Origin: an uncultured candidatus Brocadiaceae bacterium
Lineage (GTDB): Bacteria > Planctomycetota > UBA11346
NCBI GenBank assembly: GCA_964405325.1
Contig: CAYONM010000010.1
Location: forward strand, 12,445-36,444
Length of the DNA stretch: 24,000 bases
Direction: 5' to 3'
The first letter of the stretch is position 1. The number at the start of each line of letters is the position of its first letter. Made by a program: the position numbers and the translations under genes. The notes beneath the pieces were generated by a model. It worked only from the letters and a program-made list of their open reading frames with translations. It was not told the origin of the DNA and did no database searches. Shown here piece after piece: positions 924 through 24,000 of the stretch.

Positions 924-1646
924 ATGCCTGAAGAAGAAGAGGATTCCGTCGGCGAAGTACCTGCCTACATGGTGAGCTTCGGCGATATGATTACCCTCCT
1001 GTTGACCTTTTTCATTCTGCTGGTCGCCCTGGCCGATACCCAGACCGCCGGTCTGGTGGGAGCAGGCCGTGGACCGCTGGTCCGTCACGTCAATGCCAAG
1101 GGGGAGCCAGGTATTTTCAAGGGGCATCTGATCGAACGGCGCATGCAGTATAAACGCGACAGCTGGTGGATTCCCGATCAGGAAGGTGACCCCGACCAAC
1201 TGGAGGTGGTGCGTGAAAAATTGCAGCGGGAATTGGTGACCAAGTTCAAGCCCGATGAAGCGTCGATCCGTTATGAAAAGGACCGTCTGGTGATGCGGCT
1301 GCCGGCAAAAATTGAATTCGATGCCCAGGGTCGACCGATGGTCTCTGATGCCATGCGTGAAGTGTTGCGCAGCATCGCCCAGATCGCCTATCGGCGCCCG
1401 AATCGCTATATCCGTATCAATGGCGAGGTCGCTCCCGGCGGTAGCCGACGAGACGAATGGTTGGCGAGTGCGCATTTGTGTGAATTGGTATATCTGAATC
1501 TGGTGTGGAACGGCATGACCGCCAAGCGGATCAGTCTCTGGGGATGGGGTGCGTCGCGCCGGATCGCCGCCGCCGCCGCCATCGATCGCGGTGTCACGAT
1601 CGAAGTTCTGGATGTGCCCGTAGAGACCGGGCCGGAATCATTCTGA
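924..1646 (+). CDS. motB: Second MotB-like stator B subunit (paralog 2, 240 aa)
   Basis: PAYMVSFGDMITLLLTFFILLVALA repeats the MotB TM/Asp signature (D21). The C-terminal OmpA-like region is more degenerate (RDEWLASAHLCELVYLNL ... ISLWGWGAS). A purine-rich AAGGAAAGG lies upstream of ATG 924. The DNA differs from motB paralog 1 at synonymous positions, so this is not a recent duplication. Confidence 0.7.
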   Translation: MPEEEEDSVGEVPAYMVSFGDMITLLLTFFILLVALADTQTAGLVGAGRGPLVRHVNAKGEPGIFKGHLIERRMQYKRDSWWIPDQEGDPDQLEVVREKLQRELVTKFKPDEASIRYEKDRLVMRLPAKIEFDAQGRPMVSDAMREVLRSIAQIAYRRPNRYIRINGEVAPGGSRRDEWLASAHLCELVYLNLVWNGMTAKRISLWGWGASRRIAAAAAIDRGVTIEVLDVPVETGPESF

Positions 1647-3664: not shown

Positions 3665-5365
3665 CTATTCCTCCGTGTCCAGCCCGTGCACGGTCTTCTC
3701 CCAGTAATGCGGTCGCCGGATCAGCTGCCAGGCGCCTTTCCAGGCGGCTAGGCTCATCAGCAACCAGTAGACCGGCAGGGCCAGCACGGTGCGGATGGAG
3801 TCGAAGTGTTGCTGGGGGTGGCGACCACAGAGTACATGCAGGATGGCGAAAAGGAGGTTGGACAACAAGAGGGTGATGCTGGCCAGGCTGAGGGTGATGC
3901 TGGCCAGGCTCCACCAGGCATTTTCGCCGACGCCGATGTACAGTATTGGCCAACTCCAGCGGTCGATGGCCCAGGGCCGGGTACTCAGGCATTCCCACAG
4001 GCCGTAACCCAGAGTGATATCGTGACCCAAGGCCATGAGATAATAAGCCAGAATCAGCCACAACAGTGGGTTGAGCAGCAACAAAACCGGTGTGCTGGCG
4101 ACCACGATGCTGAACCAGGCGGTGCCTAGCAGGCCCAGGCGACGCAGCAGCAGCAGTGGCTGTCGGTACCAGACCAGGGCGGTTTGCAGATAACCCTTCA
4201 GCCAACGGCTGCGCTGGCGCAGCCAATTACCGATCTGGCTGTTGGCTTCCTCCCAGGTGGTACTGTCCAGCAGGCCGACACGATGACCGGCCAGGGCCAG
4301 GCGCAGGCCCAGATCGCAGTCTTCAGTCACGTTGAAGGGATCCCAGCCGCCGCAGGCGCGCAGCGGCAGGGACCGAAAATGATTGCTGGTGCCGCCCAGT
4401 GGGATGGGCGCGCGCAAGCGACAGAGGCCGGCCAAGTACCAGCCGAACCAGCCATTATATTCTTGGCTGAAAAGTTGGGTCAGCAGATTTTGCCGTGGAT
4501 TGCGGAAAGCCAGACGCGCCTGCAGGCACACAACCTGTTCGGATTCCTGGCGAAAGGCGTGCACCGCTTTGCGCAGCTGATCGGGCTCGGGACGGTCCTC
4601 GGCGTCGTAGATCACCAGGAATTCGCCGCGTGCCCGGTGTAGGCCGTGGTTGCAGGCGCGTGGTTTGGTGGTGGGCGGTGCAGGTGGCGTGATCAGCACT
4701 TCCCAGCCGGCGGGTAGGTTCATGGCGGCCAGGGCCTGTCGGGTTTCGGAATCGTCGGCTTCGAGCAAAAGTTTGACATCCAGCTTGTCGTATGGGTAAT
4801 CAAGGGCTTGCAGTGCGGCCACGGTCTGGTGGATGATGGCCGCTTCGCGGTAGACCGGTACCAGCACGGTGTAGGTGGGCCAGTCGGTTTCCTCACCAGG
4901 CAGACGGTGGACGTGTATGCTGCCGGCACGCAGCACCGCCAGCAGGCGGCCGAGCACTACCAGCAGGTACGCCATGCAGATCGTAGCGGTGATGAGGCTG
5001 GCGCTGATCAGATAATCATAGGCGGTCAGGTAGCAAAGTGCCGCCACGGCGCCGCCAAGGAACCATTCGAGGCGGATGCCGCGCAGCAATACACCGAACG
5101 CTCCGGCCAGGGCCATGCCGATGAAAACCGGTCGGGCTTGGGCCAGCCAGGTCTGCAGCCAGAGCGGGAGATGGGGATCCGGTTCGGCTGGCAGCTCGAC
5201 CATCAGGCGATGGCAGACCGCGCCCGTAATCAGGCAGACAAACCAGGCAAGGGGTATCCACAGCGGCCGCAGCACCACTCGGCTGCAACGGCGAGCGTGT
5301 TGGCGCTGATAAGCGGTGACCAATGGATCGCGACCCTGTTCGTCGGGTGGCAGTTCGACGATCAT
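3665..5365 (-). CDS. Integral-membrane family-2 glycosyltransferase of the processive synthase type (566 aa from ATG 5365)
   Basis: The ORF track starts at TTG 5377. The first ATG (5365-5363) forms an ATGA overlap with the tsaE stop (5364-5362), so I call 5365. Several hydrophobic helices lie N-terminal. The GT-A core carries VLVPVYRE, LLEADDSET, VIYDAEDRP, GGTSNHFR, VTEDCDLGLRL (TED) and QRSRWLKGY (QxxRW). More hydrophobic helices follow. This motif set is the hallmark of BcsA/PgaC/Alg8/HAS/NodC-like processive beta-glycan synthases. Confidence 0.85.
   Translation of the reverse strand: MIVELPPDEQGRDPLVTAYQRQHARRCSRVVLRPLWIPLAWFVCLITGAVCHRLMVELPAEPDPHLPLWLQTWLAQARPVFIGMALAGAFGVLLRGIRLEWFLGGAVAALCYLTAYDYLISASLITATICMAYLLVVLGRLLAVLRAGSIHVHRLPGEETDWPTYTVLVPVYREAAIIHQTVAALQALDYPYDKLDVKLLLEADDSETRQALAAMNLPAGWEVLITPPAPPTTKPRACNHGLHRARGEFLVIYDAEDRPEPDQLRKAVHAFRQESEQVVCLQARLAFRNPRQNLLTQLFSQEYNGWFGWYLAGLCRLRAPIPLGGTSNHFRSLPLRACGGWDPFNVTEDCDLGLRLALAGHRVGLLDSTTWEEANSQIGNWLRQRSRWLKGYLQTALVWYRQPLLLLRRLGLLGTAWFSIVVASTPVLLLLNPLLWLILAYYLMALGHDITLGYGLWECLSTRPWAIDRWSWPILYIGVGENAWWSLASITLSLASITLLLSNLLFAILHVLCGRHPQQHFDSIRTVLALPVYWLLMSLAAWKGAWQLIRRPHYWEKTVHGLDTEE
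3869..3910. repeat. Perfect 21-bp direct tandem duplication (2 copies) inside the GT2 gene
   Basis: GAGGGTGATGCTGGCCAGGCT occurs at 3869-3889 and again at 3890-3910, identical. On the coding (-) strand each unit reads AGC CTG GCC AGC ATC ACC CTC = SLASITL, giving ..WWSLASITLSLASITLLLSNLLF.. in a predicted C-terminal TM helix. Confidence 0.95.
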
Positions 5366-5811
5366 GCCGGGGTCCAATCACGGTCGGCCGGGATCTGGAT
5401 GTCTGCCAGTCGGCCCGGTTGCTGATGGTGTAGCGACACCGACCATAGTACTGGTACTTCATGGACCAGGTCGGCTATGCGCGCTGCCCATTCGACGCAG
5501 GCGATGCTGTCGTCCAGCAATTCGAAAAAACCCAGTCCGCACAGGTCGCTCAGACCGTGCAGGCGATAGGCGTCCACGTGCACGATCGGCGGGTTGGCCT
5601 GGTAGTGATGCAATAGCGTGAAGGTGGGACTGGCCACCGCTGCGGGATCGCCGCCGCGGGCTTGGACCAGGCCGCGCACCAAGCTGGTCTTGCCGGCCCC
5701 CAGCGGACCATCAAGCGCGAGGGTGTCGCCGATATGCAAAACCGCCGCCAACTGGGCACCAAGGGCCTGGGTGGCGGCGGGATCGGGAAGCGAGACGTGA
5801 TGCACGGGCAT
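5362..5811 (-). CDS. tsaE: tRNA threonylcarbamoyladenosine (t6A) biosynthesis ATPase TsaE/YjeE (149 aa)
   Basis: Walker A in LALDGPLGAGKTSLVRGL, then SPTFTLLHHY, HVDAYRL and IACVEWA. This is the full TsaE motif series in the canonical order and spacing. The ATG at 5811-5809 was verified. Confidence 0.9.
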   Translation of the reverse strand: MPVHHVSLPDPAATQALGAQLAAVLHIGDTLALDGPLGAGKTSLVRGLVQARGGDPAAVASPTFTLLHHYQANPPIVHVDAYRLHGLSDLCGLGFFELLDDSIACVEWAARIADLVHEVPVLWSVSLHHQQPGRLADIQIPADRDWTPA

Positions 5812-5831: not shown

Positions 5832-8800
5832 TCAGGGGGCGTACAGTCGCACGATGCCGTCAGCTGACGACAGCACCAACAGTTCACCCAATTGACAGGG
5901 GGCGAGCATGTCTTGATCGGAGTTGATGGTGAAGGGACGCGGCCCCATGACGGTGGCGGTTTTGCCGTGCACCAGCACCGCATGGCCTTGCCAGGCCATG
6001 GGGGCTTCGGTCAGGCGCTGCCGCATCGGGGCGATTTCTTTCCAGCTGCTATCATCCTGCTGCAGGAAGATGCGGTTCTCGTTGGACAGGAAGACACCAG
6101 GACCGCCGCGTTTGACCACTGCCGGCAGGCCGCTGGTCTGGAAGCGTCCATCGGAGAAGGTCCAGGCTCCGGTCATGGTATAACCGCCGACGCCGTTTGC
6201 GGTGGGCCAGGCGGCCGGCACCACATCGCCAATATCGGTGCTCTCCAGGAGGTTGCCGTTGTCCGGATCGAATTGCAGCAGGGTGCCTTCTGCCAGCACC
6301 ACCAATAGCCGTTCGTCGCGGATCACCGGATTGCTCATCACCTTCGATTGGCAGGACTGCTCCCAGACCGGCAGGCCAGTAGCGGTTTCCACGGCGCGGA
6401 TGGTGTTGTCGAGATCGGCGATGATATACAGCCGGCGGTCGACGATCAGATCGGATTCGAAGACCACGACCGCGTAGTTGGTTTGACCAGAAATCCCACC
6501 TCGTTCTACCGCGCTGGTTTTCGGGTCGATTTCCAGCACGAAGTTGTCGCGCGTGGTGACATAGACATGGTCGCCATAGCGGGCGGCCGGGGCGTAGATC
6601 GGGTTGTCCAAGGCCTGTACCGCCAGGGCGGCATCGTTGTTACCGCTCCAGTAGCGATTGATCTCAGCCTGTGGATCGATGGCGAACACGCCACGGCCAC
6701 CAGCGACCCAGACCCGTCCGTCGATCACTGCCGGACGCGAGGAGATGATCTGTTTGCAATCAGCCTTGCCGACAGCGACCCGTTTCAGGTTAACCGCGAT
6801 CTGCCAGCCGGAACGGGCGTTGATTGCAGGGACCGCCACGCTCTGGTAGCCATCGAGTTGGAATTGATAGACGGTTTCGGCACGATCATCAGCTGCCAGT
6901 CGTTCGATCAGCATCGGTGTGGTGCCGATGACCGCATCCTCGACGCTGATGGTCGCCTTGGCCGGGGTGGTGCTGAGGAAGAGTGGCAATTGTTCCAGGT
7001 TGAGTTTTTCCGCCAGGGTGCGCACGGCGACGATATCACCAGCAGCCATGGCCTCGTGCATGCGTTCGACATCGGCTAGCTGCTCCGCAACCAGCCGATC
7101 GGCGCTGGCGATCTCCTTGGTGGCGATCTCGGCTGCTTCGGTGCGTTGCCACATCAGTTGGTCGATCACCGTCTGATACTGGGCCTTGGCGGCCTGGGCG
7201 CGGCGTTGTCGCATCAGTTCCCGGGCGCTTTCCAGGGCTTCCATCGCCTGCTGTTGCAGCACTTGCAGATTCTTCTGCCGTTCCTGGAGCACCATCTGCG
7301 CGGTCTTGTCAAGATTCGGTTGCTGCAGCAGGCCAGCGATTTGAATCAGCTCCTCTTGCAAGGTCATGTTGTCGATGGCTTCTTGCAGCTGACCGCACCA
7401 GTTGAGCAGCTGCTCGAACTCGCTGCTTTCAGCGATGGCTGGATAGTCGGCCATGACCTGTTTCAAGGATTGCTGCGCCCGTTGTAGATCGTTGCCACGA
7501 ACGTCACTGGCGATGGCTTTCTGGACCGCGGTGCGTGCGCTGTCGATATCACGTCGGCTCTTGACCAACTGTTGCCGCAGGCGTCGCAGGGCCAGGCCGA
7601 TCTCCGAATCTTCGCCCTCCAACTGCAGGCCTTGGCTGAGGCCTTCGGCCTGATCCACCAGACCGCGGGTCGCCATGTCCAGGGCATTGGCCAGACGCTT
7701 CTTGATGCTTTCCTGTTGTTGCAGCAGGTCGTTGCGCATACCGGTCAAGGTGCGCTGCTGCTCCTCGTTGGGACCGGATTTCAAGATTTGTTCGATCAGT
7801 CGCAACCGGGCATTGGTGCTCATGCCTTCCAGACCGCTGAGTTCTTCGATCCGCCGTTGCCGCCATTCGTCCAGGCGCTTCTGCAGAGGTTCGCGCAGCA
7901 GTGACAGTTTAACAGATTCAACCAGACCCAGGGCGGTATCGGCTTGATTGCTGTTGAGCAGTTTGCCGACCTTGTCCTGCAAGTCGCTCAACTGTTGCTG
8001 GACATTGGCCCGTGCCGTGTTGTAGGCACTGCGGAGGCTGTCGAGTTTTTGGACCAGCTGCGGCTGCCAGATCAGCGAGTCGGGGGGGATGACGGTCGGA
8101 TAGGACTGCAGCCGCAGCTCGGTCTTGTTCAGTTCTCTGTTGGCGACCAGTTTTTCGAGCTGTTCCAGTTTTTGGGTGATCTGGACCCGCTTATCGGCGC
8201 AGACCTGTTCCAGTTTGGCGGAGAGGGCGATGTCCTGGCCAGCCAGGTCCATGGCCTCCGATACGTGTTTTTCAGCTTCCTGCCATTGGTGCGACACGAT
8301 GGCCCCGTCCAGTTGGGTGCTGAGGGCGTCGACTGCCACCGAGGTTTGCTGGGCCCGCACCACCACGAAGGCGAGGAAGCCGATGGAGACCAGGACGATC
8401 AGCAGCACCGACCAGACCAGCAGGCGATTATCGCCGACCGGGCGCAGGGTGGAATTGCTGTAGACTTGGAAGTCGTCCATCGCTGCCGGGCTGCCGGCGG
8501 CGGGTTGCGGGGTCATGTTGCCGGAGGCAGGAATGGTGACGGGCGCAGCGGCGGCCGCTGGACTGGGTGCCGGCGCTTCGTCCACCGGCTCCTCTTCGTA
8601 CACTGGTGGTTGTTCTGACACCAGGCCATGATCGCGCAGGCTTTTCAGATAGCAGGCGATATTGATCGTGCTTTCGCGCAGGGAGCTGGCGATGTCGCGT
8701 ACATTTTTGGCACCATCCACCATCATTAAGACGTGCTGTTCCATCTCGTTGATGCTGGTGCGGGCCGGGTCGACGTGGGTCCGGTAGTAGACCCGATTGA

Positions 8801-9308
8801 AGTCGTTGATCACCGAGAGCACTGCGTCGCGCTCTTGGACCCGCGATTGGACCATGGAGAGCAGCATTTCGCTTTCGATGCGGATCTTCAGGGCTCCCAC
8901 GTCCAGGTCGAAGGGCTCGATGGCCGGATCGCCCTCGGCACGGAAGATCAATTGCTGGCATTCCTGGGAGAACAGGTTGATCAGCACCTGTTCCACCATG
9001 CAGCGTTGGATCGTGGCGGCCTCGTCACCGGAGATCAGTCGCTGCTTCTGCAGCGTGTCCACGATCGGTGTGGCCTGATTCTGATACAGGGAACAGGCCA
9101 ATTGGAACATGGCCTGGTCGATCTTGTGGAACTCCAGAAAGGTCTTGGCGAGGACGATTTCCTTGTCTTCGCCAAGGTCGAGGAGCAGGAGCTGACCGTC
9201 TTCAAAATAGAAGCGGTAAATATGATCCGCCACGCCCACCACCAGGGCGCCGGAACGCCTGTCGGATGCGATGTTTTGAATCTCAGCGACCAGTCGGTTG
9301 TTCAACAT
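5832..9308 (-). CDS. Giant bitopic membrane protein 'B' (1158 aa): PATAN/DUF4388-like N-domain, TM, long helical region, PEGA-like domain, PQQ/BamB-like beta-propeller; function unknown
   Basis: ATG 9308-9306 is preceded by GAGGTG, which overlaps the upstream gene's TAG.
Domain map (hand motif calls):
- aa 5-125 (nt 8934-9296): LVAEIQNIASDRRSGALVV..YRFYFEDGQLLLL, DUF4388-like.
- aa 185-230: MMVDGAKNVRDIASSL..YLKSLRDHGLV.
- aa 233-280: Pro/Ala linker.
- aa 296-317 (nt 8358-8423): TM, LLVWSVLLIVLVSIGFLAFVVV.
- aa 320-775 (nt 6984-8351): Q/E/L/R/A-rich helical region.
- aa 776-845 (nt 6774-6983): LFLSTTPAKATISVEDAVIGTTPML..FQLDGYQS, PEGA-like.
- aa 850-1158 (nt 5835-6761): beta-propeller-like repeats (NTIRAVETATGLPVWEQ, GTLLQFDPDNGNLL, ADGIVRLY). 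Confidence 0.8.
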   Translation of the reverse strand: MLNNRLVAEIQNIASDRRSGALVVGVADHIYRFYFEDGQLLLLDLGEDKEIVLAKTFLEFHKIDQAMFQLACSLYQNQATPIVDTLQKQRLISGDEAATIQRCMVEQVLINLFSQECQQLIFRAEGDPAIEPFDLDVGALKIRIESEMLLSMVQSRVQERDAVLSVINDFNRVYYRTHVDPARTSINEMEQHVLMMVDGAKNVRDIASSLRESTINIACYLKSLRDHGLVSEQPPVYEEEPVDEAPAPSPAAAAAPVTIPASGNMTPQPAAGSPAAMDDFQVYSNSTLRPVGDNRLLVWSVLLIVLVSIGFLAFVVVRAQQTSVAVDALSTQLDGAIVSHQWQEAEKHVSEAMDLAGQDIALSAKLEQVCADKRVQITQKLEQLEKLVANRELNKTELRLQSYPTVIPPDSLIWQPQLVQKLDSLRSAYNTARANVQQQLSDLQDKVGKLLNSNQADTALGLVESVKLSLLREPLQKRLDEWRQRRIEELSGLEGMSTNARLRLIEQILKSGPNEEQQRTLTGMRNDLLQQQESIKKRLANALDMATRGLVDQAEGLSQGLQLEGEDSEIGLALRRLRQQLVKSRRDIDSARTAVQKAIASDVRGNDLQRAQQSLKQVMADYPAIAESSEFEQLLNWCGQLQEAIDNMTLQEELIQIAGLLQQPNLDKTAQMVLQERQKNLQVLQQQAMEALESARELMRQRRAQAAKAQYQTVIDQLMWQRTEAAEIATKEIASADRLVAEQLADVERMHEAMAAGDIVAVRTLAEKLNLEQLPLFLSTTPAKATISVEDAVIGTTPMLIERLAADDRAETVYQFQLDGYQSVAVPAINARSGWQIAVNLKRVAVGKADCKQIISSRPAVIDGRVWVAGGRGVFAIDPQAEINRYWSGNNDAALAVQALDNPIYAPAARYGDHVYVTTRDNFVLEIDPKTSAVERGGISGQTNYAVVVFESDLIVDRRLYIIADLDNTIRAVETATGLPVWEQSCQSKVMSNPVIRDERLLVVLAEGTLLQFDPDNGNLLESTDIGDVVPAAWPTANGVGGYTMTGAWTFSDGRFQTSGLPAVVKRGGPGVFLSNENRIFLQQDDSSWKEIAPMRQRLTEAPMAWQGHAVLVHGKTATVMGPRPFTINSDQDMLAPCQLGELLVLSSADGIVRLYAP

Positions 9309-9318
9309 GGGGTCACCT

Positions 9319-12300
9319 CTATTCCAATCTCAAGGCCATGATAGCGCCGTCTTGCAGAGCGACGACCAGGAGGTCGTCTATGAATCCGATGGCCTGAGCC
9401 GCTTGGGGCAAGTGTCGTTGCCAGACCAGTCGAGTATCACGATAAGCGAGCAGTCGTCGATCGTTATCCGCGAGAATCGTGAAGGGGCCACGCACACCCG
9501 CACAGCTGACCGGAACCGCGGATGGAATGATCTGTGCTAATTGTCCATTGTCATGCACTTGGTGGATGCCGTCGGTGGTCGCCAGCAGCACTTGGCCGGC
9601 ATCGTGCATGGGTGGCTCCACCAGGCTGGCGGGCAAGGGTTGTTCCCAGCGCAGTTGCAGACCTTGTTGATCGGCGCCGACCAGGGCCAGGCGGCTATCG
9701 TCCAGCACCGCGATGTAGCGACCATGCTTCCATTGCCGCAGGTGGTCCACTTGGGCCGCCCCCAGATCCAGACGCCAGGCACGCACCCGGTCCACCTCGT
9801 TCCAGCCCAGCAGGTGGCCACTGATGGAGGCCATCAGCAGGATCTGATTGGTATCGTCGCGATAGAGACAGGGCCCGGCGATCAGCGGTTCGCCCACGTC
9901 CACGGTGCGCAATTGGCCGTCCACCACCAATTGCAGCGAGGACGCGGCCATGGCGTAGCGAAGTTCCGGACCAAACAGTTCGTTGCGGTAGAGTAGAGGA
10001 CGGTCGTATAGCGTGCCGTTCAGGTCCACCTGGAAGGTCTCACGGCCGGCGAAATTAAGCTGATGGATGATGCCGGCGCCATCGTCGTAGACGATCAGAT
10101 GGTCATCCTCGGCGATGGCGACGCTGCGGTGCCACCGGGGCGTGTCGCCCAGCCCCAGGTCCTGGATCCGCTTGCGCCAGAGCAGCTGCCCGTCGTTGTT
10201 CAGGCAGCCCAGGCCATCGCGTTGCCACAGTAGCAGGCGTCCTGGCCCCAGGCTCTGCAGACCGTCGGCGGGCTGATTGTTGCGGTAGGTCCACACGATG
10301 GCGCGTTGCGGTCGAACCTCCCAGCGCCAGTCGTCACTGAGTTCTTGGATGCGCGCTTCCACCGGCTCGCAGCCCGGATACTCGATACGCAGGCGTTCCG
10401 CCGAGTCGGGTTGGATGAACATCACCGTCGGCACGCTGCCGATGGATTGCCCGCCCCGCAAGACCCGGCCGCCGGGTACCGCGCTCTCGATCACCAGTGG
10501 CAGCACCAGCTGCTTGCGGGTATCCGGAAAATCCCGGTGCAGCTCCTGGCCGCGCGCGTGCATGCTGGCCCAGTCCTCTTGCTCGCGCGCGGCCTGGTAG
10601 GCCAGCTCCAGGTCGCGCCGTCGTTGGCCCTGGCGCCGTAATTCCTGGCGCAACGCTTGGACCGCTGGCAAGTGGCGGCTGCCGGGAAAACTGGCCAGGA
10701 AGCGTTCGATTGCAGCCATGTCGGGGTCCTGCTGCAGCACGGTCCAATTCCGATCGGCCTGCTGCTGATTGGCGCGGATCACCAGGACAATGGCGTTCAG
10801 GCGCGGGCCGGCCTGCCAGGACTTGGCGGTTTCCTGCAGTGCCGCGGCACTATCGAGGGCGGTACGGTAGTCGCGTTGTCCGGTTTGCTGCAGTTGTTCC
10901 AGACTGGCACGGAACTGCTGCAGCCGCTCGGTGAGACGATCGGCCATGGCGGCAGCATCGCGGGCGACGATGGTGTTGCTGCTGGTGCGCAGGTTCTCCG
11001 CCAGCTGGAGGGCGGCTTGCAGACGGCCTTCCTGCTCGGCCTGCGTGGCTTGCCGTAGTTGTGCCGGGGCCTGATCTGCCAGCGCCTGTTCGTCGGCGAT
11101 TTCGGCTTCGAGTCGTTTCAGCCGTTGTTCCAGCTCCACCAGTTGGACCGCGTGAATATCGCTGCCGAAGACCGTCTTGAACCGCTGCAGGGTGTTGCGC
11201 GCCGCTTCGGCTTGGCGGGCGGCCAGGTGCCGCTGGATGCGGACCAGATCCGCTTCGGCAAAGGACTGCCTGGCCTGGCTGACCAGCATCTCGATGGGAT
11301 GCCAGGCTTCGCTGGTATCACCGCCAACCTCGCTGGCGCGTTTGGTCAGCTCCTTTTTGATGTCGACGATCTCCAGATACGCGTTGGCGCCACCGTCTTG
11401 GCTGAGCAGCATTTCGGCGCGCTCGATTTGGGTGTCGGCGTATTCGCGGAATTCGCGGATACGATATTGCCGCAACAGGATCAGGAGCAGCGCGGCCAGC
11501 AGGACCAGCAAGGCGAAGCTGTAGACGATGCTCGCACGCCGATGATTGGCGACGGCCGTGGCCAGCATGCCTTGTAGCCGCGGTCGGCGGGCATCGTCCT
11601 CGCTGAGACTCTGTAGCGCACCTTTATAGCAGCGGACTGCGATATAGTATCGCCGGCTTTGATTGGCCTTGTTGCCGCGGACGATCAGCTGCTCCACCGT
11701 GTGGTGATGGGCCAGCATCTCCATTTCCCGCAAATGCTGGCGAATATGGCGGCTTTCCGGACGGGAGCGGGCGATTTCGCGCCAAATATCCAGGGCCGTG
11801 GTGTAATCGTGTCGATTCTTGGCCTCGACCGCTTGCTGCACATTGTTTCGGAATGTGCTGTCCTCGCTGCCGCCGACCGCAGCGAAGATATTGCTCTCCG
11901 AGCTATCGGTCGCCTGCCGGTGCGGATCGTGACCACAAAAAATACAGACCTCGTCCGACACCATCACCGGTCGGGTGCACTGCGAGCATTCGATCTCCAG
12001 GAGGGCTTTGCAGGCACTGCAGTGGCTGAGGCCACGTTTATTGACCTGGCCGCACTCGATGCAGAGCACTTCGTCCTGGCCGAATTCCCAAGCATCATTG
12101 TGCCGGACCGCCTGGGCCAGTAGATGGCGGGCGTCGATATCGCCGGGATTGCTGTCGAGCACCTCCAGGCACAGGTCCTGGGCGCTGTGCCAATGGCCAT
12201 CCTCCAGCTGCTGATAGGCCAGGTCCAGACGTTCGCGCCGGGCGCGTGCGAAATCGCCAGACTCGTCCAGGCACTGGATCAGCACCTTGCATTCGGTGAC

Positions 12301-13299
12301 GGCTTTGCCGTGGCTGAGCTCTATCGCGCGCCTGGCCGAAGCGAGGGCCTCGGTATGCGCTCCATCTGCCAGGTGCCCCAGGGCCAGCTGTCGATAACAG
12401 CCAGCGGCTTCGGGGGCGTCGCCGAAACGCTCCAGGGAAATGGCCAGGGCCCGGACCAAGCTGGAATCCGATGGATTGATGGCCAAAGCGCGGCGATACA
12501 GCCGGCTGCTGCGGCCGAAATCACCAACGCTGTCGTAATAGGCGGCGTTGTTGCGGATTTGTACATTGTCCAACGGGGCCAGCAGCTGGTGATCCAGCAG
12601 ATCCACCAGGACCGCGTAGACATCCAAGCGGGTGGCGACGCTTTCGGCGACCAGTTCCTCGACCGAGCGGATGCCGTCGATCAGGGGGATGACCGAATTG
12701 GCCGGATAATCCTGGGACAGGTCATCCAGCAGTTCGCGCGAGCCAGCGGTTTCGGTAAGTATGATGTCATTCGATGGTAGCGCCGAGCGAATGCGGCCCC
12801 ATTCGTCCAGGCGGCGAGCTGATTCCATCAGCAGGCTGTCGGCCTGCAGGCCGACGCCGAGTTTCTGGGAGCGAGCGATCATTTCATCGACGTTATCGGC
12901 CTGGCCGGATTCGACGAAGGTGAAGTTCGCTTCTTCCCAGGTGAACAGGTCGTAGAGCTGATCCTGCATCAATTGTTGAATAATGTCCCGGGTGCGCGCG
13001 TCCTGCAGCCGGCCGCTGTCGATAAGGCGGCCCAGGGTGACATAACCGCCGGAGCCGGTTTCTTCGATTTCGGCAAATTCGATATCGGCAATGACGCCAC
13101 AGGCTTCCATGCGCTGCAGCAGATCACGATCCCCTTGGACGCTGCGATCGATGATCTGCGTAACGACCCCATGGTCGAAGATCACATCAGCGCCTCGCTC
13201 GACCGCATCCAGGCTTAACACGCCGGTGGCATCGGTACGGGCAAGGGTCTGAAAAATCTCCGCCAGGGATAGGGTCCTGAGCGTGCCCGACAGAGCCAT
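9319..13299 (-). CDS. Giant bitopic membrane protein 'A' (1326 aa): PATAN/DUF4388 domain, TPR-like repeats, double zinc ribbon, TM, long helical region, PEGA-like domain, beta-propeller; function unknown
   Basis: ATG 13299-13297 verified; no SD upstream.
Domain map (hand motif calls):
- aa 3-128 (nt 12916-13293): LSGTLRTLSLAEIFQTLARTDATGVLSL..VIFDHGVV, canonical DUF4388/PATAN opening.
- aa 155-240: LLMESARRLDEW and PLIDGIRSVEELV segments.
- aa 250-400 (nt 12100-12552): TPR-like (YRRALAINPSDSS.., LEVLDSNPGDIDA..).
- aa 413-455 (nt 11935-12063): CIEC-x10-CSAC-x7-CSQC-x10-CIFC, double zinc ribbon.
- aa 590-610 (nt 11470-11532): TM, IVYSFALLVLLAALLLILL.
- aa 612-930 (nt 10510-11466): helical region.
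- aa 931-998 (nt 10306-10509): VIESAVPGGRVLRGGQSIGSVPTV..RIEYPGCEP, PEGA-like.
- aa 1000-1326 (nt 9322-10302): divergent beta-propeller-like repeats (DGLGCLNNDGQLLWRK, DGAIMALRLE). Confidence 0.8.
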   Translation of the reverse strand: MALSGTLRTLSLAEIFQTLARTDATGVLSLDAVERGADVIFDHGVVTQIIDRSVQGDRDLLQRMEACGVIADIEFAEIEETGSGGYVTLGRLIDSGRLQDARTRDIIQQLMQDQLYDLFTWEEANFTFVESGQADNVDEMIARSQKLGVGLQADSLLMESARRLDEWGRIRSALPSNDIILTETAGSRELLDDLSQDYPANSVIPLIDGIRSVEELVAESVATRLDVYAVLVDLLDHQLLAPLDNVQIRNNAAYYDSVGDFGRSSRLYRRALAINPSDSSLVRALAISLERFGDAPEAAGCYRQLALGHLADGAHTEALASARRAIELSHGKAVTECKVLIQCLDESGDFARARRERLDLAYQQLEDGHWHSAQDLCLEVLDSNPGDIDARHLLAQAVRHNDAWEFGQDEVLCIECGQVNKRGLSHCSACKALLEIECSQCTRPVMVSDEVCIFCGHDPHRQATDSSESNIFAAVGGSEDSTFRNNVQQAVEAKNRHDYTTALDIWREIARSRPESRHIRQHLREMEMLAHHHTVEQLIVRGNKANQSRRYYIAVRCYKGALQSLSEDDARRPRLQGMLATAVANHRRASIVYSFALLVLLAALLLILLRQYRIREFREYADTQIERAEMLLSQDGGANAYLEIVDIKKELTKRASEVGGDTSEAWHPIEMLVSQARQSFAEADLVRIQRHLAARQAEAARNTLQRFKTVFGSDIHAVQLVELEQRLKRLEAEIADEQALADQAPAQLRQATQAEQEGRLQAALQLAENLRTSSNTIVARDAAAMADRLTERLQQFRASLEQLQQTGQRDYRTALDSAAALQETAKSWQAGPRLNAIVLVIRANQQQADRNWTVLQQDPDMAAIERFLASFPGSRHLPAVQALRQELRRQGQRRRDLELAYQAAREQEDWASMHARGQELHRDFPDTRKQLVLPLVIESAVPGGRVLRGGQSIGSVPTVMFIQPDSAERLRIEYPGCEPVEARIQELSDDWRWEVRPQRAIVWTYRNNQPADGLQSLGPGRLLLWQRDGLGCLNNDGQLLWRKRIQDLGLGDTPRWHRSVAIAEDDHLIVYDDGAGIIHQLNFAGRETFQVDLNGTLYDRPLLYRNELFGPELRYAMAASSLQLVVDGQLRTVDVGEPLIAGPCLYRDDTNQILLMASISGHLLGWNEVDRVRAWRLDLGAAQVDHLRQWKHGRYIAVLDDSRLALVGADQQGLQLRWEQPLPASLVEPPMHDAGQVLLATTDGIHQVHDNGQLAQIIPSAVPVSCAGVRGPFTILADNDRRLLAYRDTRLVWQRHLPQAAQAIGFIDDLLVVALQDGAIMALRLE

Positions 13300-13305
13300 A
13301 AACCC

Positions 13306-13334
13306 AAGTTATTATTGCACATGGCAACTGTCAA
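13306..13334 (-). promoter_or_regulatory. Candidate sigma70-type promoter for gene A, positioned for a leaderless or near-leaderless transcript
   Basis: The minus strand reads TTGACA (13334-13329), a 17-nt spacer, TAACTT (13311-13306), then GGGTTT and ATG (13299). The -35 is perfect and the -10 is weak (3 of 6). The A of the ATG is the 7th nt after the -10 hexamer. No Shine-Dalgarno sequence is present. Confidence 0.25.
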
Positions 13335-13425: not shown

Positions 13426-14330
13426 ATGGCCTGCTCCGCCTATCTGACCTGCCCGGCCTATCCGCTGCGCGATGCGCAGATGCTTTTGCATGCGCAACTT
13501 TGCGCAGATGGCTGGGCTCGTGAGCTTGGGTGGCAGCTGCAGTGGAGTCCCTTGTGCTGGCGTTTCGGCCCACGAGGGCAGTGGCATCCGGCCGCTGATC
13601 GGGCCGCGGATCTACACCAGGCGTTGGATCACACGCTGCTCTGGGGGCTGCGTGGTGGTTACGGCTGCGTCGAACTGATCACGGAAATGCAGGGTTGGGG
13701 CGCTGATGGTCCGGCCGTGGTGGGCTTCTCCGACCTGACCGTGCTGCACGCGCTGCGCTGGCGCCAGGGCGCGCGGCCGGGCATCTATGGTCCCATGCCG
13801 GCGGTAGCAGCTGGAGCACGGGCCCGTTGCAGCCTGATTGAGGCGGCCAGTGGCCGTGCCTGGCAGATCACCAGTGCGGAATCGGCTGGCCATGGCCAGC
13901 GCAGCGGTCAGGCCGAGGGCCGCTTGTTTGCCGCTTGTTTGCGGGTGCTGGCCAGTCTGGTCGGTACTCCGGCCCAGCCGGATCTGGATGGCAGCATCCT
14001 GGCCATCGAGGACATCGATGAAGCGCCGTATGCGGTGGATCGCGACCTACAGCAGCTGCATGCCGCTGGTCTGCTGCGCGGTGTCCGAGCTTTACTGGCG
14101 AATCGCTTCCCTTGGCAGCCGGAGGTGGATCATGGTGGTCCGCCAGCAGCAGCCGTGATTGCCGCTTGGGCCGAGCGGCTGGGCATCCCAGCTCTGGTCG
14201 GTTTGCCTTTTGGCCATGCTCCCGACCCACTGGCGCTGCCGCAGGGCCGTTTGGCCTGGCTGCGGGTGACCGGTCCGGACGAGTGGGGTTTTGGCTGGGC
14301 TGCCGGGGCTGGCCTGATGGGAGAGAAAGC

Positions 14331-14334
<4 letters not shown>
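13426..14334 (+). CDS. ldcA: LD-carboxypeptidase (peptidase S66, muramoyltetrapeptide carboxypeptidase-like), 302 aa
   Basis: S66 catalytic-triad contexts occur in the right order: GFSDLTVLH (Ser), EDIDEAPYAVDRDLQQL (Glu), GLPFGHAPDPLALPQG (His). Upstream lies RAADLHQALDHTLLWGLRGGYGCVELI, typical of the N-domain. The stop TGA 14332-14334 overlaps the uvrA GTG. Confidence 0.7.
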
Positions 14335-20364: not shown

Positions 20365-20415
20365 ATTCTGTAGGATGAAAAACAGTTTCAAAAGGTGAAA
20401 ATGTTGATACTTTTC
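20365..20415. promoter_or_regulatory. aceB/iclR divergent control region: two GAAA..TTTC palindromes (candidate IclR-type operators) overlapping a candidate aceB promoter
   Basis: TGAAA-AACAG-TTTCA at 20376-20390 is a 15-bp palindrome, the same length and arm type as the E. coli IclR box TGGAAATNATTTCCA. GAAAA-N9-TTTTC lies at 20397-20415. On the minus strand, TTGAAA (20391-20386), a 15-nt spacer and CAGAAT (20370-20365) could form the aceB promoter. The first palindrome covers its -35. Confidence 0.35.
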
Positions 20416-20462
20416 GGACATCTGGGCATCGGTCCGGCCACCAGATTACGAGAGGGGATCCG

Positions 20463-21224
20463 ATGGTCGCAGCCAGTGTAAAGCCGAATCAGAGTCTGGG
20501 CCGGGCTTTCAGTGTTCTGGAATACCTGGCCGAGCATCCGGGAGCGCGGCTGAAGGATGTGGCTGCCGGCACCGAGCTGGCAGCGCCCACGGCGCTGCGC
20601 TTTCTTGGTACGTTGGTGGAGTTGGGTTATGTCCAGCAGCACGAGCACGGTTACGTGATCGGCGCCCGCCTGGCCTCGCTGAGCCGGGGCATGTGGTCCG
20701 GCGATGTGGCCGGGACGATCGCCGCCAGTCTGGCCGAGGTTGCCGATCAGTTGGGCTGCACCGCCTTCTTTGTGTTGCGCGATCGTGATGAAGCTATCTA
20801 CGTGCAGCGGGCGCAACCGCGCCAGGCGGCTTTCGTTAGCACCCAGCGGATCGGCAAACGGGTGCCGCTGTATTGCTCGGGTGTCGGGAAGGTGTTTCTC
20901 GCTGGCGACCCGTTGCATAAACGACAGCAATATTGTCAACGTGCGGAGTTGAATCGATATACCGACGCCACCATTACCGAACCGATGGCCTTGTTGCGGC
21001 ATCTGGAGCAGGTTGCCAATCAGGGCTATGCCGTGGACGATCAGGAATGTGAAACCGGCGTCCGTTGTCTGGCGGTACCGGTCCGGGATGGGCAGCAGCG
21101 CTTGCGCGCTGCGATGTCGGTCAGCGGACCGCTGGCGAGTTTTCCGCCGGATCAGCAGGCCTTGCCCGTCCTGCAGCAAGCGGCAACGGCCTTGGCGCCC
21201 TATCTGCAGGAGGGCGCCTGGTAG
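20463..21224 (+). CDS. iclR: IclR-family transcriptional regulator (253 aa), divergent from aceB
   Basis: N-terminal wHTH LGRAFSVLEYLAEHPGARLKDVAAGTELAAPTALRFLGTLVELGYVQQ. C-terminal IclR effector domain pattern (..GKRVPLYCSGVGKVFLA.., GYAVDDQECETGVRCLAVPV.., AMSVSGP). GAGAGGGGA lies upstream of the ATG. Confidence 0.85.
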   Translation: MVAASVKPNQSLGRAFSVLEYLAEHPGARLKDVAAGTELAAPTALRFLGTLVELGYVQQHEHGYVIGARLASLSRGMWSGDVAGTIAASLAEVADQLGCTAFFVLRDRDEAIYVQRAQPRQAAFVSTQRIGKRVPLYCSGVGKVFLAGDPLHKRQQYCQRAELNRYTDATITEPMALLRHLEQVANQGYAVDDQECETGVRCLAVPVRDGQQRLRAAMSVSGPLASFPPDQQALPVLQQAATALAPYLQEGAW

Positions 21225-21257: not shown

Positions 21258-23546
21258 TTATCGTGTGACCACCGCATCTGGCCCGACTTGCTGGTAATCC
21301 AGGCCGATGGTGCCCAGCGCCATTTTGCCGGACGTGGCGCCGCCGGCCGGATGCGTGCTGATCACCAGCGCGTCGTCGGCCGGGAAACTCAGGGGGACGC
21401 CACCGACGAATGTATGCTCGGCAAGCGTGTCGCCGGTAGTGTCGATGCTCAGGCGGTAAACGCCGTCGGCATCCACGTCCAGGCGGAAGGCTGGGGCCGA
21501 TTGCGGATCGATGTCGCTCAGGACGTCGGTGAGATCTTCGACCAGCAGGCTGTCGTCCTTCTGTGCCTGTCCCAGGCTGTAACCGGCGGGGACGCGCCAC
21601 AGGCCGCATTGCACCGGGTTACCGTTGTAGTCACCCAGCTGCCATTTCGCGCTGCCGTTGTTGCCGGCGGCGGGCTGATAGCGGAAGGCCAGAGCCAGAA
21701 CCAGACCATCGGCCGAGCTCTGATTGCCGCCACTGATGCCGATGCCGTGCAGTACCGGCATGGTGCTGATGTCGTCGGCGTAGCGGGCTAGGCGCAATTG
21801 CGCATCTTGGGCCTGATGCTGATCAAAGACGTCGCCTGCTTCGCCGCTGACCAGATCCCAGCTGCGCAGGCGGATCCAATAATCGATGCCAGCCGGGCCG
21901 ACCAGGGTGTTGCTGCTCCAGCCGCGTTTGCCGGCGGCATTGGCGCCGCTCCATTGCACGGTGTCCAGACTCCCGCTGACCGCGTCGCCATCGGTCAGGC
22001 TGACACCAGCTACGATGCCATTGGCGGCCATGGTGGTGGGGCGCTGTAATACTGGGCTGTAATGTTGCCGGGCCCAGCGGAAACCGGCCACGGTATCGGT
22101 ACGGACTGCCGCCACCTGCTGCTGGATGTCGCGGTCTGCGACGGTGAGGTCGAACAGTTGGAGGTCATCCAGGTCGCCGGTAAAATAGGCGTACGGCTCG
22201 CCGGCCAAGCGACCGATATTCAGCGGCAGTTCGCCGCCGCGCAGGGCGGTCAGGGTGCCGTCGGATGCGGTTTCGATGCCATCGACATAGAGTTTGGCGC
22301 TCGTGCCATCAACCATGGCGGCGACATGATGCCATTCATTGGCGGGCAGATCGACATTTTCGGCGCGCGCGACATTGCCGCTTCCGCCAGTGACCGTCAG
22401 TACATTCAGGGCTGGATTATATTCCAGTTCGTAGCCGATGGCATCGTCATAGGCGATTTTTTTCGAGAGGATGCGCATGAAGGTGTTCAGCTCCGCGTCG
22501 GCGATGCGGATCCAGGCGCTCATGCCCAGTTGTCCGGTGATGGCCAGTCCCGGGCCATTGGCAGTTTCCAGCCAGGCATTTTCGTGCTCCAGTCGGATGG
22601 CACCGCCAATGGCGCCATCGGGAATCCAGGCGGCTTCGCCCATCAACGTCGCGTCGTGACCATGGCCGGACAGATCGCCGGCAACGGTACCGGTCTGTTC
22701 ATCGAAACTCCAATGCGCGACCAGTCCCGTGCGACTGCCGGAAAGGGCCTGGAATTCGCTCGGGCTGATGACCCGATTGTAGATCCGCAGCTCGTCCACC
22801 ACGCCGTTCAGGCGACCACCTCCGTGATGATTGCGGCCGACCCAGAGATCGGTTTTCGGAGCTTTGAGGCGATCGATTGTGCCGATTGTGGTGCGTTCGG
22901 TGCCGTCGACATAGAGACGAGCGTCTTCACCATGGATCAGTACTGTGATATGATGCCAGGTGGTGCCAAGATTGGTACGGTGCGCCTGGGCGATTTGCTG
23001 GCCGGAGCTGATCAGATTCAGCTCTTCACTGACCGGATTGTATTCCAGCTCGAAACCTTTGGGCTGATGCCAGTCGTCCTTGCAGGAGACCAGGCGCATA
23101 TAGCCATCGACCGATGGATCATCGATGCGCACAAACAAGCTGATGGTCAGTTGCTCGCCAATGCCTTGTAACGCCTGCTGGTCGATCTGCACGCCACCGC
23201 CATCGATCACCATGATCCCACCGGCATCGAAGCCGGGAGCCCAGGTGGCCGGGCTGATCAGATTGCCGTCGTTGCCCTGGGCAGATTGGTCGGCCACGAT
23301 GTTGCCAGACTGTTCGTCGCAGGACCAGTAGCCCAGCAGGCCCGAGGTGGCCACACTGTTCAGCTGATAGGCGGTTGGCTGGTAGGCGGTTTCGGCATTC
23401 TGGGCGTAGACTTGGAACGTTGAGTTGTCGTCGCTCGCCTGCTGGGCGGACGCGCTGTCGTCGGAGCCACCGCCGCAGGCGCTCAGGCCCATGCCAAGTC
23501 CGATACAACAAACACCATTCAGGAGGGTATTGAGCTTGATGGTCAT
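21258..23546 (-). CDS. Lipoprotein with two tandem LamG/concanavalin-A-like domains and an unassigned ~280-aa C-terminal domain (762 aa from ATG 23546)
   Basis: The ORF-track start (23885) adds 113 aa of Arg/Gln-rich sequence with no signal peptide. The in-frame ATG 23546 is preceded by GGAGAC and gives MTIKLNTLLNGVCCIGLGMGLSAC, with lipobox L-S-A-C (Cys24). LamG 1 spans aa ~68-268 (nt 22743-23345): LLGYWSCDEQSGNIVADQSAQGNDGNL ... WHHITVLIHGEDARLYVDG ... VDELRIYNRVISPSEFQAL. LamG 2 spans aa ~273-470 (nt 22137-22730): LVAHWSFDEQTGTVAGDLSGHGHDATL ... WHHVAAMVDGTSAKLYVDG ... LDDLQLFD. For aa ~480-762 (nt 21261-22108) I recognise no family. Confidence 0.8.
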   Translation of the reverse strand: MTIKLNTLLNGVCCIGLGMGLSACGGGSDDSASAQQASDDNSTFQVYAQNAETAYQPTAYQLNSVATSGLLGYWSCDEQSGNIVADQSAQGNDGNLISPATWAPGFDAGGIMVIDGGGVQIDQQALQGIGEQLTISLFVRIDDPSVDGYMRLVSCKDDWHQPKGFELEYNPVSEELNLISSGQQIAQAHRTNLGTTWHHITVLIHGEDARLYVDGTERTTIGTIDRLKAPKTDLWVGRNHHGGGRLNGVVDELRIYNRVISPSEFQALSGSRTGLVAHWSFDEQTGTVAGDLSGHGHDATLMGEAAWIPDGAIGGAIRLEHENAWLETANGPGLAITGQLGMSAWIRIADAELNTFMRILSKKIAYDDAIGYELEYNPALNVLTVTGGSGNVARAENVDLPANEWHHVAAMVDGTSAKLYVDGIETASDGTLTALRGGELPLNIGRLAGEPYAYFTGDLDDLQLFDLTVADRDIQQQVAAVRTDTVAGFRWARQHYSPVLQRPTTMAANGIVAGVSLTDGDAVSGSLDTVQWSGANAAGKRGWSSNTLVGPAGIDYWIRLRSWDLVSGEAGDVFDQHQAQDAQLRLARYADDISTMPVLHGIGISGGNQSSADGLVLALAFRYQPAAGNNGSAKWQLGDYNGNPVQCGLWRVPAGYSLGQAQKDDSLLVEDLTDVLSDIDPQSAPAFRLDVDADGVYRLSIDTTGDTLAEHTFVGGVPLSFPADDALVISTHPAGGATSGKMALGTIGLDYQQVGPDAVVTR

Positions 23547-23593
23547 GACCTGTCTCCATTCCGGTCTGAACTTAACCTTTCTAAACAAGTAAA

Positions 23594-23622
23594 GCAAGCG
23601 TTTGCGCAGTTTTCGCGCTTGC
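23594..23622. promoter_or_regulatory. 7-bp inverted repeat in the divergent intergenic region (possible operator or hairpin)
   Basis: GCAAGCG (23594-23600), 15-nt spacer, CGCTTGC (23616-23622). It lies between the LamG lipoprotein start (23546) and the + strand ORF start (23652). No known motif assigned. Confidence 0.15.
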
Positions 23623-23651
23623 CTGGGCCAATCAGCCCGGAGCGTTGTGAT

Positions 23652-24000
23652 ATGAGTCAGCATGTCTATCTCGCGGACCCAGATTATGTGGCGCAATTGC
23701 ACACGGAACTGGCGGATTGGGGCCGATTGGAACAACTGGACGATCGTCTGTTTCTGCTGTCTGGTCCGGCGCGGCCATCGGCCTGGGCGGTCTGCATCTG
23801 GTTCGAGGTGGAGCGTTTGCCGATCAGCTCCATCGGCAAGGCTGCTGCGCTGTTGCGGGAGCGGGGTCCATATTGGGATCTGCATGTCAGTGCCGCCGCT
23901 CGCCGCAGCCGTCTGGTGGCCGATAAGCTGTTGCGCATCCGTGACAAAACCTGGGAATTTCCGCTGACCTGGCAGCCCAAGCCGCGTGGCGCGTTCACCC
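23652..24000 (+). CDS. Open-ended ORF (N-terminal 116 aa; 3' end outside the window), possibly an RlmM-like (COG2933) SAM-dependent rRNA 2'-O-methyltransferase N-domain
   Basis: Absent from the supplied track because it has no stop in the window. My translation from ATG 23652: MSQHVYLADPDYVAQLHTELADWGRLEQLDDRLFLLSGPARPSAWAVCIWFEVERLPISSIGKAAALLRERGPYWDLHVSAAARRSRLVADKLLRIRDKTWEFPLTWQPKPRGAFT. The composition is protein-like, unlike the Cys/Arg/Trp-rich track ORFs 23662-23967 and 23717-23926. The pattern W..(I/V)W......I.SI..AA..LR...(R).W........RR..L....L......FP resembles the N-terminal region of RlmM-like methyltransferases as I remember them. Confidence 0.45.
   Translation, partial: MSQHVYLADPDYVAQLHTELADWGRLEQLDDRLFLLSGPARPSAWAVCIWFEVERLPISSIGKAAALLRERGPYWDLHVSAAARRSRLVADKLLRIRDKTWEFPLTWQPKPRGAFT

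Follow-up and report, generated by a model that had tools for sequence, protein, structure and literature searches.

Adjacent paralogous PATAN, PEGA and BamB-like propeller membrane proteins of uncultured Planctomycetota: domain anatomy, conserved pairing and a possible scaffold role

All PATAN (Pfam DUF4388) proteins studied so far are, to our knowledge, soluble regulators docking onto pilus motors or division proteins. The PatA-type PATAN-REC regulators (PatA of Anabaena; PixG, PixE and LsiR of Synechocystis) carry an N-terminal PATAN domain and a small helical module resembling a helix-turn-helix (HTH), and their PATAN domain acts as a protein-docking output domain. In PixE this domain is sufficient to bind PilB1 and PilC (bioRxiv 10.1101/2021.06.11.447907); for PatA, binding to two division proteins, ZipN and SepF, is documented (PMC7380572). 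BamB (YfgL) is a stand-alone lipoprotein of about 390 amino acids (aa) with an 8-bladed PQQ-type propeller, and TolA is one of the periplasm-spanning stalks, with an N-terminal anchor, a Pro/Gly-poor helical region rich in A, E, Q and R and a C-terminal binding domain. Domain II of TolA has been modelled as one long helix. The periplasmic part of GltJ, a component with GltG of the Myxococcus Agl-Glt gliding machinery, links to outer-membrane components. GltJ is a single-span inner-membrane protein that binds MglA-GTP, MglB and AglZ through a zinc finger and adaptor motifs in its cytoplasmic part (PMC11135422). The present study describes two adjacent genes, here called A and B, in a stretch of 24,000 nucleotides (the window) from an uncultured candidatus Brocadiaceae bacterium (contig CAYONM010000010.1, assembly GCA_964405325.1). 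Their products join PATAN, PEGA and BamB-like propeller domains in single membrane-anchored chains. The modules are all known; what is new is their combination, the conserved pairing of the two paralogues and a spacer of conserved length.

Read from the N-terminus, A and B each consist of PATAN/DUF4388, a winged-helix-like module, a single transmembrane (TM) helix, an all-alpha region, PEGA and a BamB-like propeller. Two further elements, TPR repeats and a double zinc ribbon with eight cysteines, occur in A (Table 1). An earlier note on this DNA, made from the letters alone, had already proposed an identical domain order for the two proteins, and this is now supported by Pfam, by orthologue matches, by hhalign and by the AlphaFold2 model of A. 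The open reading frame (ORF) positions given there, and the overlap of the Shine-Dalgarno sequence of B with the stop codon of A, were reproduced exactly from the sequence. A gap of 10 nt separates the two genes, the sequence at their junction being TAG(9321-9319)-AGGTGACCCC-ATG(9308). Exactly one strongly hydrophobic helix per protein, another reading of the earlier note, was likewise obtained from the Kyte-Doolittle profiles, in which the TM helix of A (19-residue maximum 3.04) is its sole segment above 1.6. Searches of the open literature with DUF4388, PATAN, PEGA with Planctomycetes, beta-propeller and transmembrane found no characterised protein of this architecture, in agreement with the earlier note, which knew of none either; the database names of these proteins ('PilF', 'BamB', 'DUF4388 domain-containing protein') are automatic only.

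For A, about 22 full-length homologues with 25-30% identity to A of the window were taken as the family set, and the AlphaFold2 model, built on a 23-sequence alignment, covers aa 168-1326 with a mean predicted local distance difference test (pLDDT) of 84.8. The PATAN domain is matched by PF14332 with 75.7 bits (E 4e-21; gathering score 25) and is found in 22/22 A orthologues. The winged-helix-like module, known to the earlier note as an 'xxDGxRxVxEL' segment only, is now seen as a module of its own; AlphaFold2 gives it a beta-alpha-alpha-alpha-alpha-beta order at a pLDDT of about 90, and profile searches returned weak matches alone (MarR, TrmB and PqqD-like families, E 0.004 or higher). The TPR repeats were absent from that note and are now placed at about aa 250-400. 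They are sub-threshold in A of the window (TPR_17, 23.1 bits; cut-off 24.4), are matched by TPR_19 in 20 of the 22 orthologues (best E 3.5e-15) and are recovered by the A-family profile against TPR proteins in the PDB (E 7e-16) as well as by AlphaFold2, which shows helical hairpins at aa 245-400. Zinc ribbons had been named earlier, along with the DZR model, with neither coordinates nor evidence; they can now be assigned to A, where eight cysteines (C413, 416, 427, 430, 438, 441, 452 and 455) are invariant in the 22 A-family sequences and four short strands are seen in the model. DZR scores 23.8 bits in the window, under its cut-off of 27.3, and is matched by 20 of the 22 orthologues (29.6 bits in homologue P0009). 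The juxtamembrane region has a length fixed at 108 aa and a mean pairwise identity of 42.6%, its invariant residues including W506, E536, I539, R549, Y558, D569 and R571. The cytoplasmic modules are the best conserved parts of the A family, the mean pairwise identity being 58.6% in the zinc ribbon and 49% in the PATAN domain.

On the far side of the TM helix the PEGA assignment holds at the family level only, for A as for B. A Pfam scan of the two window proteins gave no PF08308 match at E<=1, and 15/22 A orthologues and 4/5 B orthologues match at the aligned position with E<=0.01. Against a cut-off of 20.8 bits, the scores are 29.7 for P0012 (aa 959-1009), 29.5 for P0009, 23.3 for the B orthologue of locus L002 (aa 790-843) and 20.8 for that of locus L004. 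In the model of A, the domain is a 7-strand sandwich with pLDDT 85-92. The propeller is matched directly in both proteins, PQQ_2 (PF13360) scoring 36.8 bits in A and 42 in B above the gathering score of 27.6. In A it is modelled as 32 strands, that is 8 blades. Foldseek against the PDB ranked BamB first for the A model (E 2e-12, TM-score on target 0.58-0.70), and profile searches of PDB sequences were in agreement for both families, the B-family profile matching BamB chains with E 1.5e-13. Thus, the PATAN, PEGA and propeller assignments made earlier were all recovered by profile or structure searches, PEGA by way of the orthologues rather than the window proteins themselves. No enzymatic family was matched by A or B in the Pfam and further family scans.

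In B the PATAN domain scores 24.8 bits, just under the cut-off of 25, and 5/5 B orthologues match it (best E 6e-8); the winged-helix-like module has weak ArsR, Csa3-HTH and HTH_69 matches. There is no zinc-ribbon module in B. The place of the TPR and zinc-ribbon region of A is occupied by a Pro/Ala-rich linker of 38-71 aa with a mean identity of 26%. BLASTP detected no similarity between A and B (E 0.25). When the A family (22 sequences) was compared with the B family (5 sequences) by hhalign, the two were aligned over 1093 columns with a probability of 99.8% (E 7e-29). Taken module by module, the corresponding values were 94.9% for PATAN, 93% for the winged-helix-like module, 79% for the helical region, 99% for PEGA (E 3e-18) and 93% for the propeller, and all 25 cross-module controls (25/25) remained below 6%, so that each of the five modules matches its counterpart alone. 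A and B are thus, by profile comparison, ancient paralogues whose relationship is visible at that level only. B is in effect an A with a Pro/Ala-rich linker in place of the TPR repeats and zinc ribbon and with a helical region about 130 residues longer.

Table 1. Coordinates of genes A and B, their encoded domains and the neighbouring features in the window
Feature	Coordinates	Strand	Basis or remark
Gene A	9319..13299	minus	1326 aa bitopic membrane protein; ORF
Gene B	5832..9308	minus	1158 aa bitopic membrane protein; ORF; distant paralogue of A
GAGGTG Shine-Dalgarno of B	9314..9319	minus	one G in common with the TAG stop of A; read from sequence
Sigma-70-like promoter of A	13306..13334	minus	TTGACA 13334-13329, 17-nt spacer, TAACTT 13311-13306
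A PATAN/DUF4388, aa 4-167	12799..13290	minus	PF14332; ends in LLMESARRLDEW helix
A winged-helix-like module, aa 168-245	12565..12798	minus	AlphaFold2, hhalign; PLIDGxRxVxEL motif
A cytoplasmic TPR repeats, aa 246-400	12100..12564	minus	orthologue TPR_19 matches, PDB profile, AlphaFold2
A double zinc ribbon (4 x CxxC), aa 413-456	11932..12063	minus	PF12773 DZR, cysteine conservation
A juxtamembrane helical region, cytoplasmic, aa 480-588	11536..11862	minus	conservation
A single TM helix, aa 591-609	11473..11529	minus	Kyte-Doolittle
A periplasmic all-alpha region, aa 612-930	10510..11466	minus	AlphaFold2
A PEGA-type beta-sandwich, aa 933-994	10318..10503	minus	AlphaFold2, orthologue Pfam matches
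A 8-bladed BamB/PQQ-type beta-propeller, aa 1001-1326	9322..10299	minus	PQQ_2, AlphaFold2, Foldseek
B PATAN/DUF4388, aa 5-160	8829..9296	minus	PF14332, orthologues, hhalign
B winged-helix-like module, aa 161-235	8604..8828	minus	hhalign vs A module; MVDGAKNVRDIA motif
B Pro/Ala-rich low-complexity cytoplasmic linker, aa 236-295	8424..8603	minus	sequence
B single TM helix, aa 298-316	8361..8417	minus	Kyte-Doolittle maximum 2.84
B periplasmic all-alpha region, aa 320-772	6993..8351	minus	AlphaFold2 in part, hhalign
B PEGA-type beta-sandwich, aa 773-845	6774..6992	minus	hhalign, orthologue Pfam matches
B BamB/PQQ-type beta-propeller, aa 846-1158	5835..6773	minus	PQQ_2, profile
ldcA (LD-carboxypeptidase, peptidase S66)	13426..14334	plus	divergently transcribed from A
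tsaE	5362..5811	minus	20 nt after B, co-directional; Pfam TsaE E 2e-31, TIGR00150 above cut-off
GT2 (family 2) glycosyltransferase, polytopic, processive-type	3665..5365	minus	QRSRW (QxxRW) motif

The region that follows the TM helix is rich in A, Q, R, L and E in both proteins, with about 2% P and about 3.5% G. The earlier note had calculated that it would reach 48-68 nm as a single extended helix. One such helix is not supported by AlphaFold2, which breaks the region of A into about 15 helices, mostly of 5-34 residues and joined by loops, at a pLDDT of about 75-85; the longest helix of the A model has 62 residues, TM segment included. In B the helices reach 43 residues and the pattern is like that of A, the pLDDT being 70-85 within aa 440-770 only. 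A continuous TolA-like rod or coiled coil was not found in the AlphaFold2 models of A and B, no dedicated coiled-coil predictor having been run, and the division into many helices makes a folded bundle or a helical-repeat arrangement the more likely one in these models. Profile searches of the A region returned nothing significant from Pfam or the PDB; near its end, the hairpin that precedes PEGA has weak, non-significant TPR matches to CpoB (E 0.016) and BamD (E 0.26). The helical region is the least conserved part of both proteins, with mean pairwise identities of 26.5% (A) and 21% (B), and its length is nearly constant, at 319-335 aa in A (about 325) and 440-463 aa in B (about 453). A sequence that is free to vary while its length is held is the signature of a spacer, for which size matters more than surface.

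The A family was found in about 33 metagenome-assembled genomes (MAGs), all of them uncultured Planctomycetota, in a scan of 185,579 species genomes; a few of these MAGs bear automatic Brocadiaceae or Kuenenia labels. For B, an exhaustive HMMER search of 1.84 billion proteins gave about 35 full-length cluster representatives. A word-indexed search with B or with the 5-sequence B profile gave 2-3 proteins, the candidate list having probably been saturated by low-complexity helical words. Gene B stands behind A, in the same orientation, in 19/25 informative species-level genomes and in 5/5 metagenome contigs, which together with the window makes 25/31 loci, and this pairing persists at no more than 25-30% identity between the A orthologues and A of the window. 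The refuting case named in the earlier note, that of orthologues never being adjacent, is thereby removed. At one locus (L024:14066-17450) the B orthologue is present as two overlapping ORFs of 355 and 814 aa, owing to a frameshift, a pseudogene or an assembly error.

For both proteins, an N-in/C-out topology is the most reasonable one to infer from the sequences. It is favoured because no N-terminal signal sequence is seen in the Kyte-Doolittle profiles, because 295-590 soluble residues precede the single TM helix, because the invariant Cys8 zinc ribbon of A sits N-terminal of this helix, and because, in the A family, the 15 residues flanking the TM segment hold 80 Lys+Arg on the N-side against 51 on the C-side. 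BamB-type propellers and PEGA domains are typically extracytoplasmic, which also argues for a C-terminal part outside the cytoplasm. The N-in orientation had been proposed in the earlier note and is strengthened by the absence of a signal peptide, the long soluble N-terminal region, the zinc ribbon and the charge bias of the A family.

Based on these features, A and B may be regarded as a non-enzymatic, probably heteromeric, N-in/C-out protein-protein scaffold spanning the envelope, a tentative reading to which we give a little less than an even chance. A scaffold or adaptor is favoured because no catalytic domain was found and because PATAN is experimentally a docking domain; one observation, the adjacency of the genes at 25/31 informative loci, suggests that A and B probably form a heteromer. 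In such a scaffold the cytoplasmic, best conserved parts would recruit one or more cytoplasmic partners. A and B would both do so through PATAN and the winged-helix-like module, and A also through the TPR repeats, the zinc ribbon and the juxtamembrane helices. Judging from other PATAN proteins, an NTPase-based machine or a polarity module could be the partner. The all-alpha region would serve as a spacer (some 325 aa long in A and some 453 aa in B) positioning PEGA and the 8-bladed propeller, and these would bind a periplasmic, peptidoglycan-associated or outer-membrane partner, so that partners in the cytoplasm and in the periplasm or outer membrane may be linked over a set distance.

In comparison with the systems described above, A and B resemble the PatA-type regulators in their N-terminal half, where a PATAN domain is followed by a small HTH-like module. 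They differ from them in being integral membrane proteins with 550-860 periplasmic residues, whereas the PatA-type proteins are soluble or peripheral and of about 380 aa, and neither A nor B has a Response_reg match at E<=1 that would correspond to the C-terminal CheY-like receiver. With BamB they have in common the 8-bladed PQQ-type propeller, BamB being the best match both in structure and in PDB sequence, at an identity of 13-15%. In A and B this propeller ends an inner-membrane-anchored protein of 1150-1330 aa. The possibility that A or B is BamB proper (TIGR03300/PRK11138) was considered and rejected: B reaches 43.4 bits against a required 285, A has no match, and neither has a lipoprotein signal or any N-terminal hydrophobic signal. 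Like TolA, they have an N-terminal anchor, a helical region of similar composition and a C-terminal binding domain. Unlike TolA, they are predicted to have many helices, suggestive of bundles or repeats, and they have large cytoplasmic domains, which TolA is without. The nearest working analogy may be GltJ/GltG, as an analogy of principle only; part of the parallel is that one wider-family relative of A and B (locus L062) is encoded beside Roadblock and small-GTPase genes. We know of no PATAN, PEGA or propeller domain in GltJ, and a match of A or B to the other domains of GltJ is unlikely because Pfam found only PATAN, TPR, zinc-ribbon and propeller types in them.

Several observations weigh against the scaffold reading. 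At six loci (L011, L021, L027, L028, L030 and L033) no B gene follows A, and more distant relatives exist as single genes (L038, L039 and L053); as the partner is not always next door, the proteins might act as homo-oligomers. The Lys+Arg bias is neutral in the B family (9 vs 10) and reversed in A of the window taken alone (2 vs 4). The fold of B, its propeller included, is deduced from profile comparisons only, because its AlphaFold2 model, built on 2 sequences and with a pLDDT of 47, was unusable and was left out of the fold search. The gene context carries no consistent functional clue either, the conserved neighbours being ldcA and often uvrA.

Other explanations draw on the same features. 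The BamB-like propeller, for which BamB gives both the best structural and the best sequence match, could belong to an inner-membrane-anchored accessory of outer-membrane biogenesis. The propeller, perhaps together with a TPR hairpin like those of BamD and CpoB, would dock onto the Lpt machinery or onto the POTRA domains of BamA-type proteins, and the cytoplasmic part would do no more than regulate or localise the protein. The CpoB and BamD matches of the hairpin before PEGA would fit such a role, as would a wider-family protein, P0029, that is encoded amid lptE, bamD (YfiO), lptF/lptG, a Kdo kinase gene and an MsbA-like ABC transporter gene (locus L060). These hairpin matches are non-significant, however, such a context was seen at a single distant relative and not at the loci of the A/B pair, both proteins fall outside the BamB orthologues (43 bits against 285 for TIGR03300, and no lipoprotein signal), and the fact that the cytoplasmic modules are best conserved argues against an accessory status; on balance, this explanation appears unlikely. 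The winged-helix-like module that follows PATAN in both proteins permits another reading, in which A and B are membrane-tethered regulators of the ToxR/CadC type, propeller and PEGA sensing a periplasmic cue and the winged helix binding DNA, for example between ldcA and A. The divergent ldcA-A arrangement with its strongly conserved promoter region does resemble a regulator beside its target gene, and the 2006 description of the PATAN domain reportedly predicted an HTH in PatA. Yet all winged-helix matches are weak (E 0.004 or higher), neither protein has an OmpR/ToxR-type Trans_reg_C match, the conserved intergenic sequence is explained by -35 and -10 elements with no additional palindrome noticed, and two paralogues of 1100-1300 aa far exceed the need of such a task. 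A DNA-binding role has also been considered unlikely for PatA-type proteins (bioRxiv 10.1101/2021.06.11.447907), and we regard membrane-tethered regulation as quite improbable here.

The position of the pair in the window allows two further explanations. The genes fliN, fliM and fliL and two motB genes are about 2.2 kb from the pair, and a scaffold organising or regulating the flagellar motor or type IV pili could be imagined; the earlier note had placed the pair directly beside stator and switch genes. That link does not survive the comparison of loci, since the flagellar genes are encoded on the other strand and converge with the pair, tsaE and the GT2 gene lie in between, and flagellar or pilus-motor genes were found beside the pair in no other orthologous locus examined, which makes a role in motility very doubtful. 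The order A, B, tsaE, GT2 with its tight spacing and an ATGA overlap (window and L001-L003) would suit accessories of an exopolysaccharide synthase, A and B scaffolding the glycosyltransferase across the periplasm in the manner of the TPR and beta-rich parts of BcsB/BcsC, PgaA and AlgK. The enzyme is polytopic and, like processive synthases, carries a QxxRW motif; among the NCBIfam models, cellulose and poly-N-acetylglucosamine (PNAG) synthases match it best, all far below the cut-offs. But the GT2 gene stands behind the pair in one clade only and is absent downstream in L004, L057, L058, L059 and others, and the intervening tRNA-modification gene tsaE makes operon position an unreliable guide to function here; this proposal, too, has very little probability.

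The scaffold reading can be extended into a far more speculative one, which we consider a long shot. A and B would be an integrin-like, envelope-spanning heterodimer of one Planctomycetota clade, the spacers of which set or read the width of the periplasm, while a cytoplasmic hub of PATAN, TPR and zinc ribbon would tie the outer membrane or the peptidoglycan, by way of the BamB-like propellers and in step with LdcA, to an NTPase or polarity module. If true, this would amount to a previously unrecognised envelope-organising or division-related machine. More generally, a PATAN domain that is fixed to the inner membrane and connected by a length-conserved spacer with a BamB-like propeller would extend the uses of this docking domain to joining the cytoplasm with the outer layers of the envelope. 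The envelope architecture, division and periplasmic organisation of Planctomycetota are poorly understood, and the pair is hence a concrete candidate for work on envelope organisation, its value being limited by hosts that are uncultured and by a gene context that gives no clear pointer to function.

The promoter of A was found by comparing loci, a generic promoter scan having overlooked it. In the window the order is TTGACA, 17 nt, TAACTT, GGGTTT (6 nt) and ATG. Across the compared loci (L001-L037), TTGAC lies 34-38 nt upstream of the ATG of A in 33/34 orthologous loci, and a TAC[GCT]GT-like -10 element is seen in the same loci at about -12 to -7 from the ATG. The conservation of this promoter at a fixed distance confirms the start codon of A. 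No Shine-Dalgarno sequence occurs between the -10 element and the ATG, and with this spacing transcription would begin at the ATG or immediately beside it, so that a leaderless mRNA is predicted for A.

Among the neighbours, ldcA is the most persistent, lying upstream and divergent in most orthologous loci (L001-L034), often with uvrA just beyond. This linkage reflects either a functional link to peptidoglycan recycling or an ancestral gene order; since uvrA is often kept too, some of the conserved context suggests a gene order that was simply inherited. The tsaE and GT2 genes stand behind B in the clade of the window only. The GT2 protein has about 6-7 hydrophobic segments, and the likely ATG of its gene overlaps the stop codon of tsaE as ATGA (5365-5362). 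Neighbours at other orthologous loci include clpXP, lytB and PAPS reductase genes. The two MotB-like genes of the window are in tandem (182-901 and 924-1646, plus strand) ahead of fliL, fliM and fliN; the first encodes the MotB plug and TM region alone with no OmpA-domain match, and the second has a weak OmpA match (E 2e-4).

A wider superfamily occurs in other Planctomycetota as single genes encoding 1030-1270 aa, with PATAN, TPR, an intervening region, PEGA and a PQQ propeller. At locus L062 (6433-12799), the gene for P0026 (1051 aa, PATAN-TPR-PQQ propeller) stands ahead of co-directional genes for a TPR protein, Roadblock/LC7, an Arf-like small GTPase and a further Roadblock/LC7, a set which resembles a polarity module of the MglA/MglB type and gives a hint of possible partners of PATAN scaffolds. 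Within L060:1-19519, the gene for P0029 (1172 aa) is directly followed by a 415-aa CarboxypepD_reg-like gene. Gemmatimonadota MAGs (L045-L055) encode paired proteins with PATAN and a winged helix (about 355-460 and 540-690 aa), about 3 kb apart on the same strand, which have just the N-terminal 220-280 residues in common with A. Elsewhere in the window, a 263-aa ORF (20388-21179) with no family match lies beside a gene on the minus strand (21258-23885). The 875-aa product of the latter has two domains of the concanavalin-like lectin type Laminin_G_3 and weakly matches the TafC family of fimbrial proteins.

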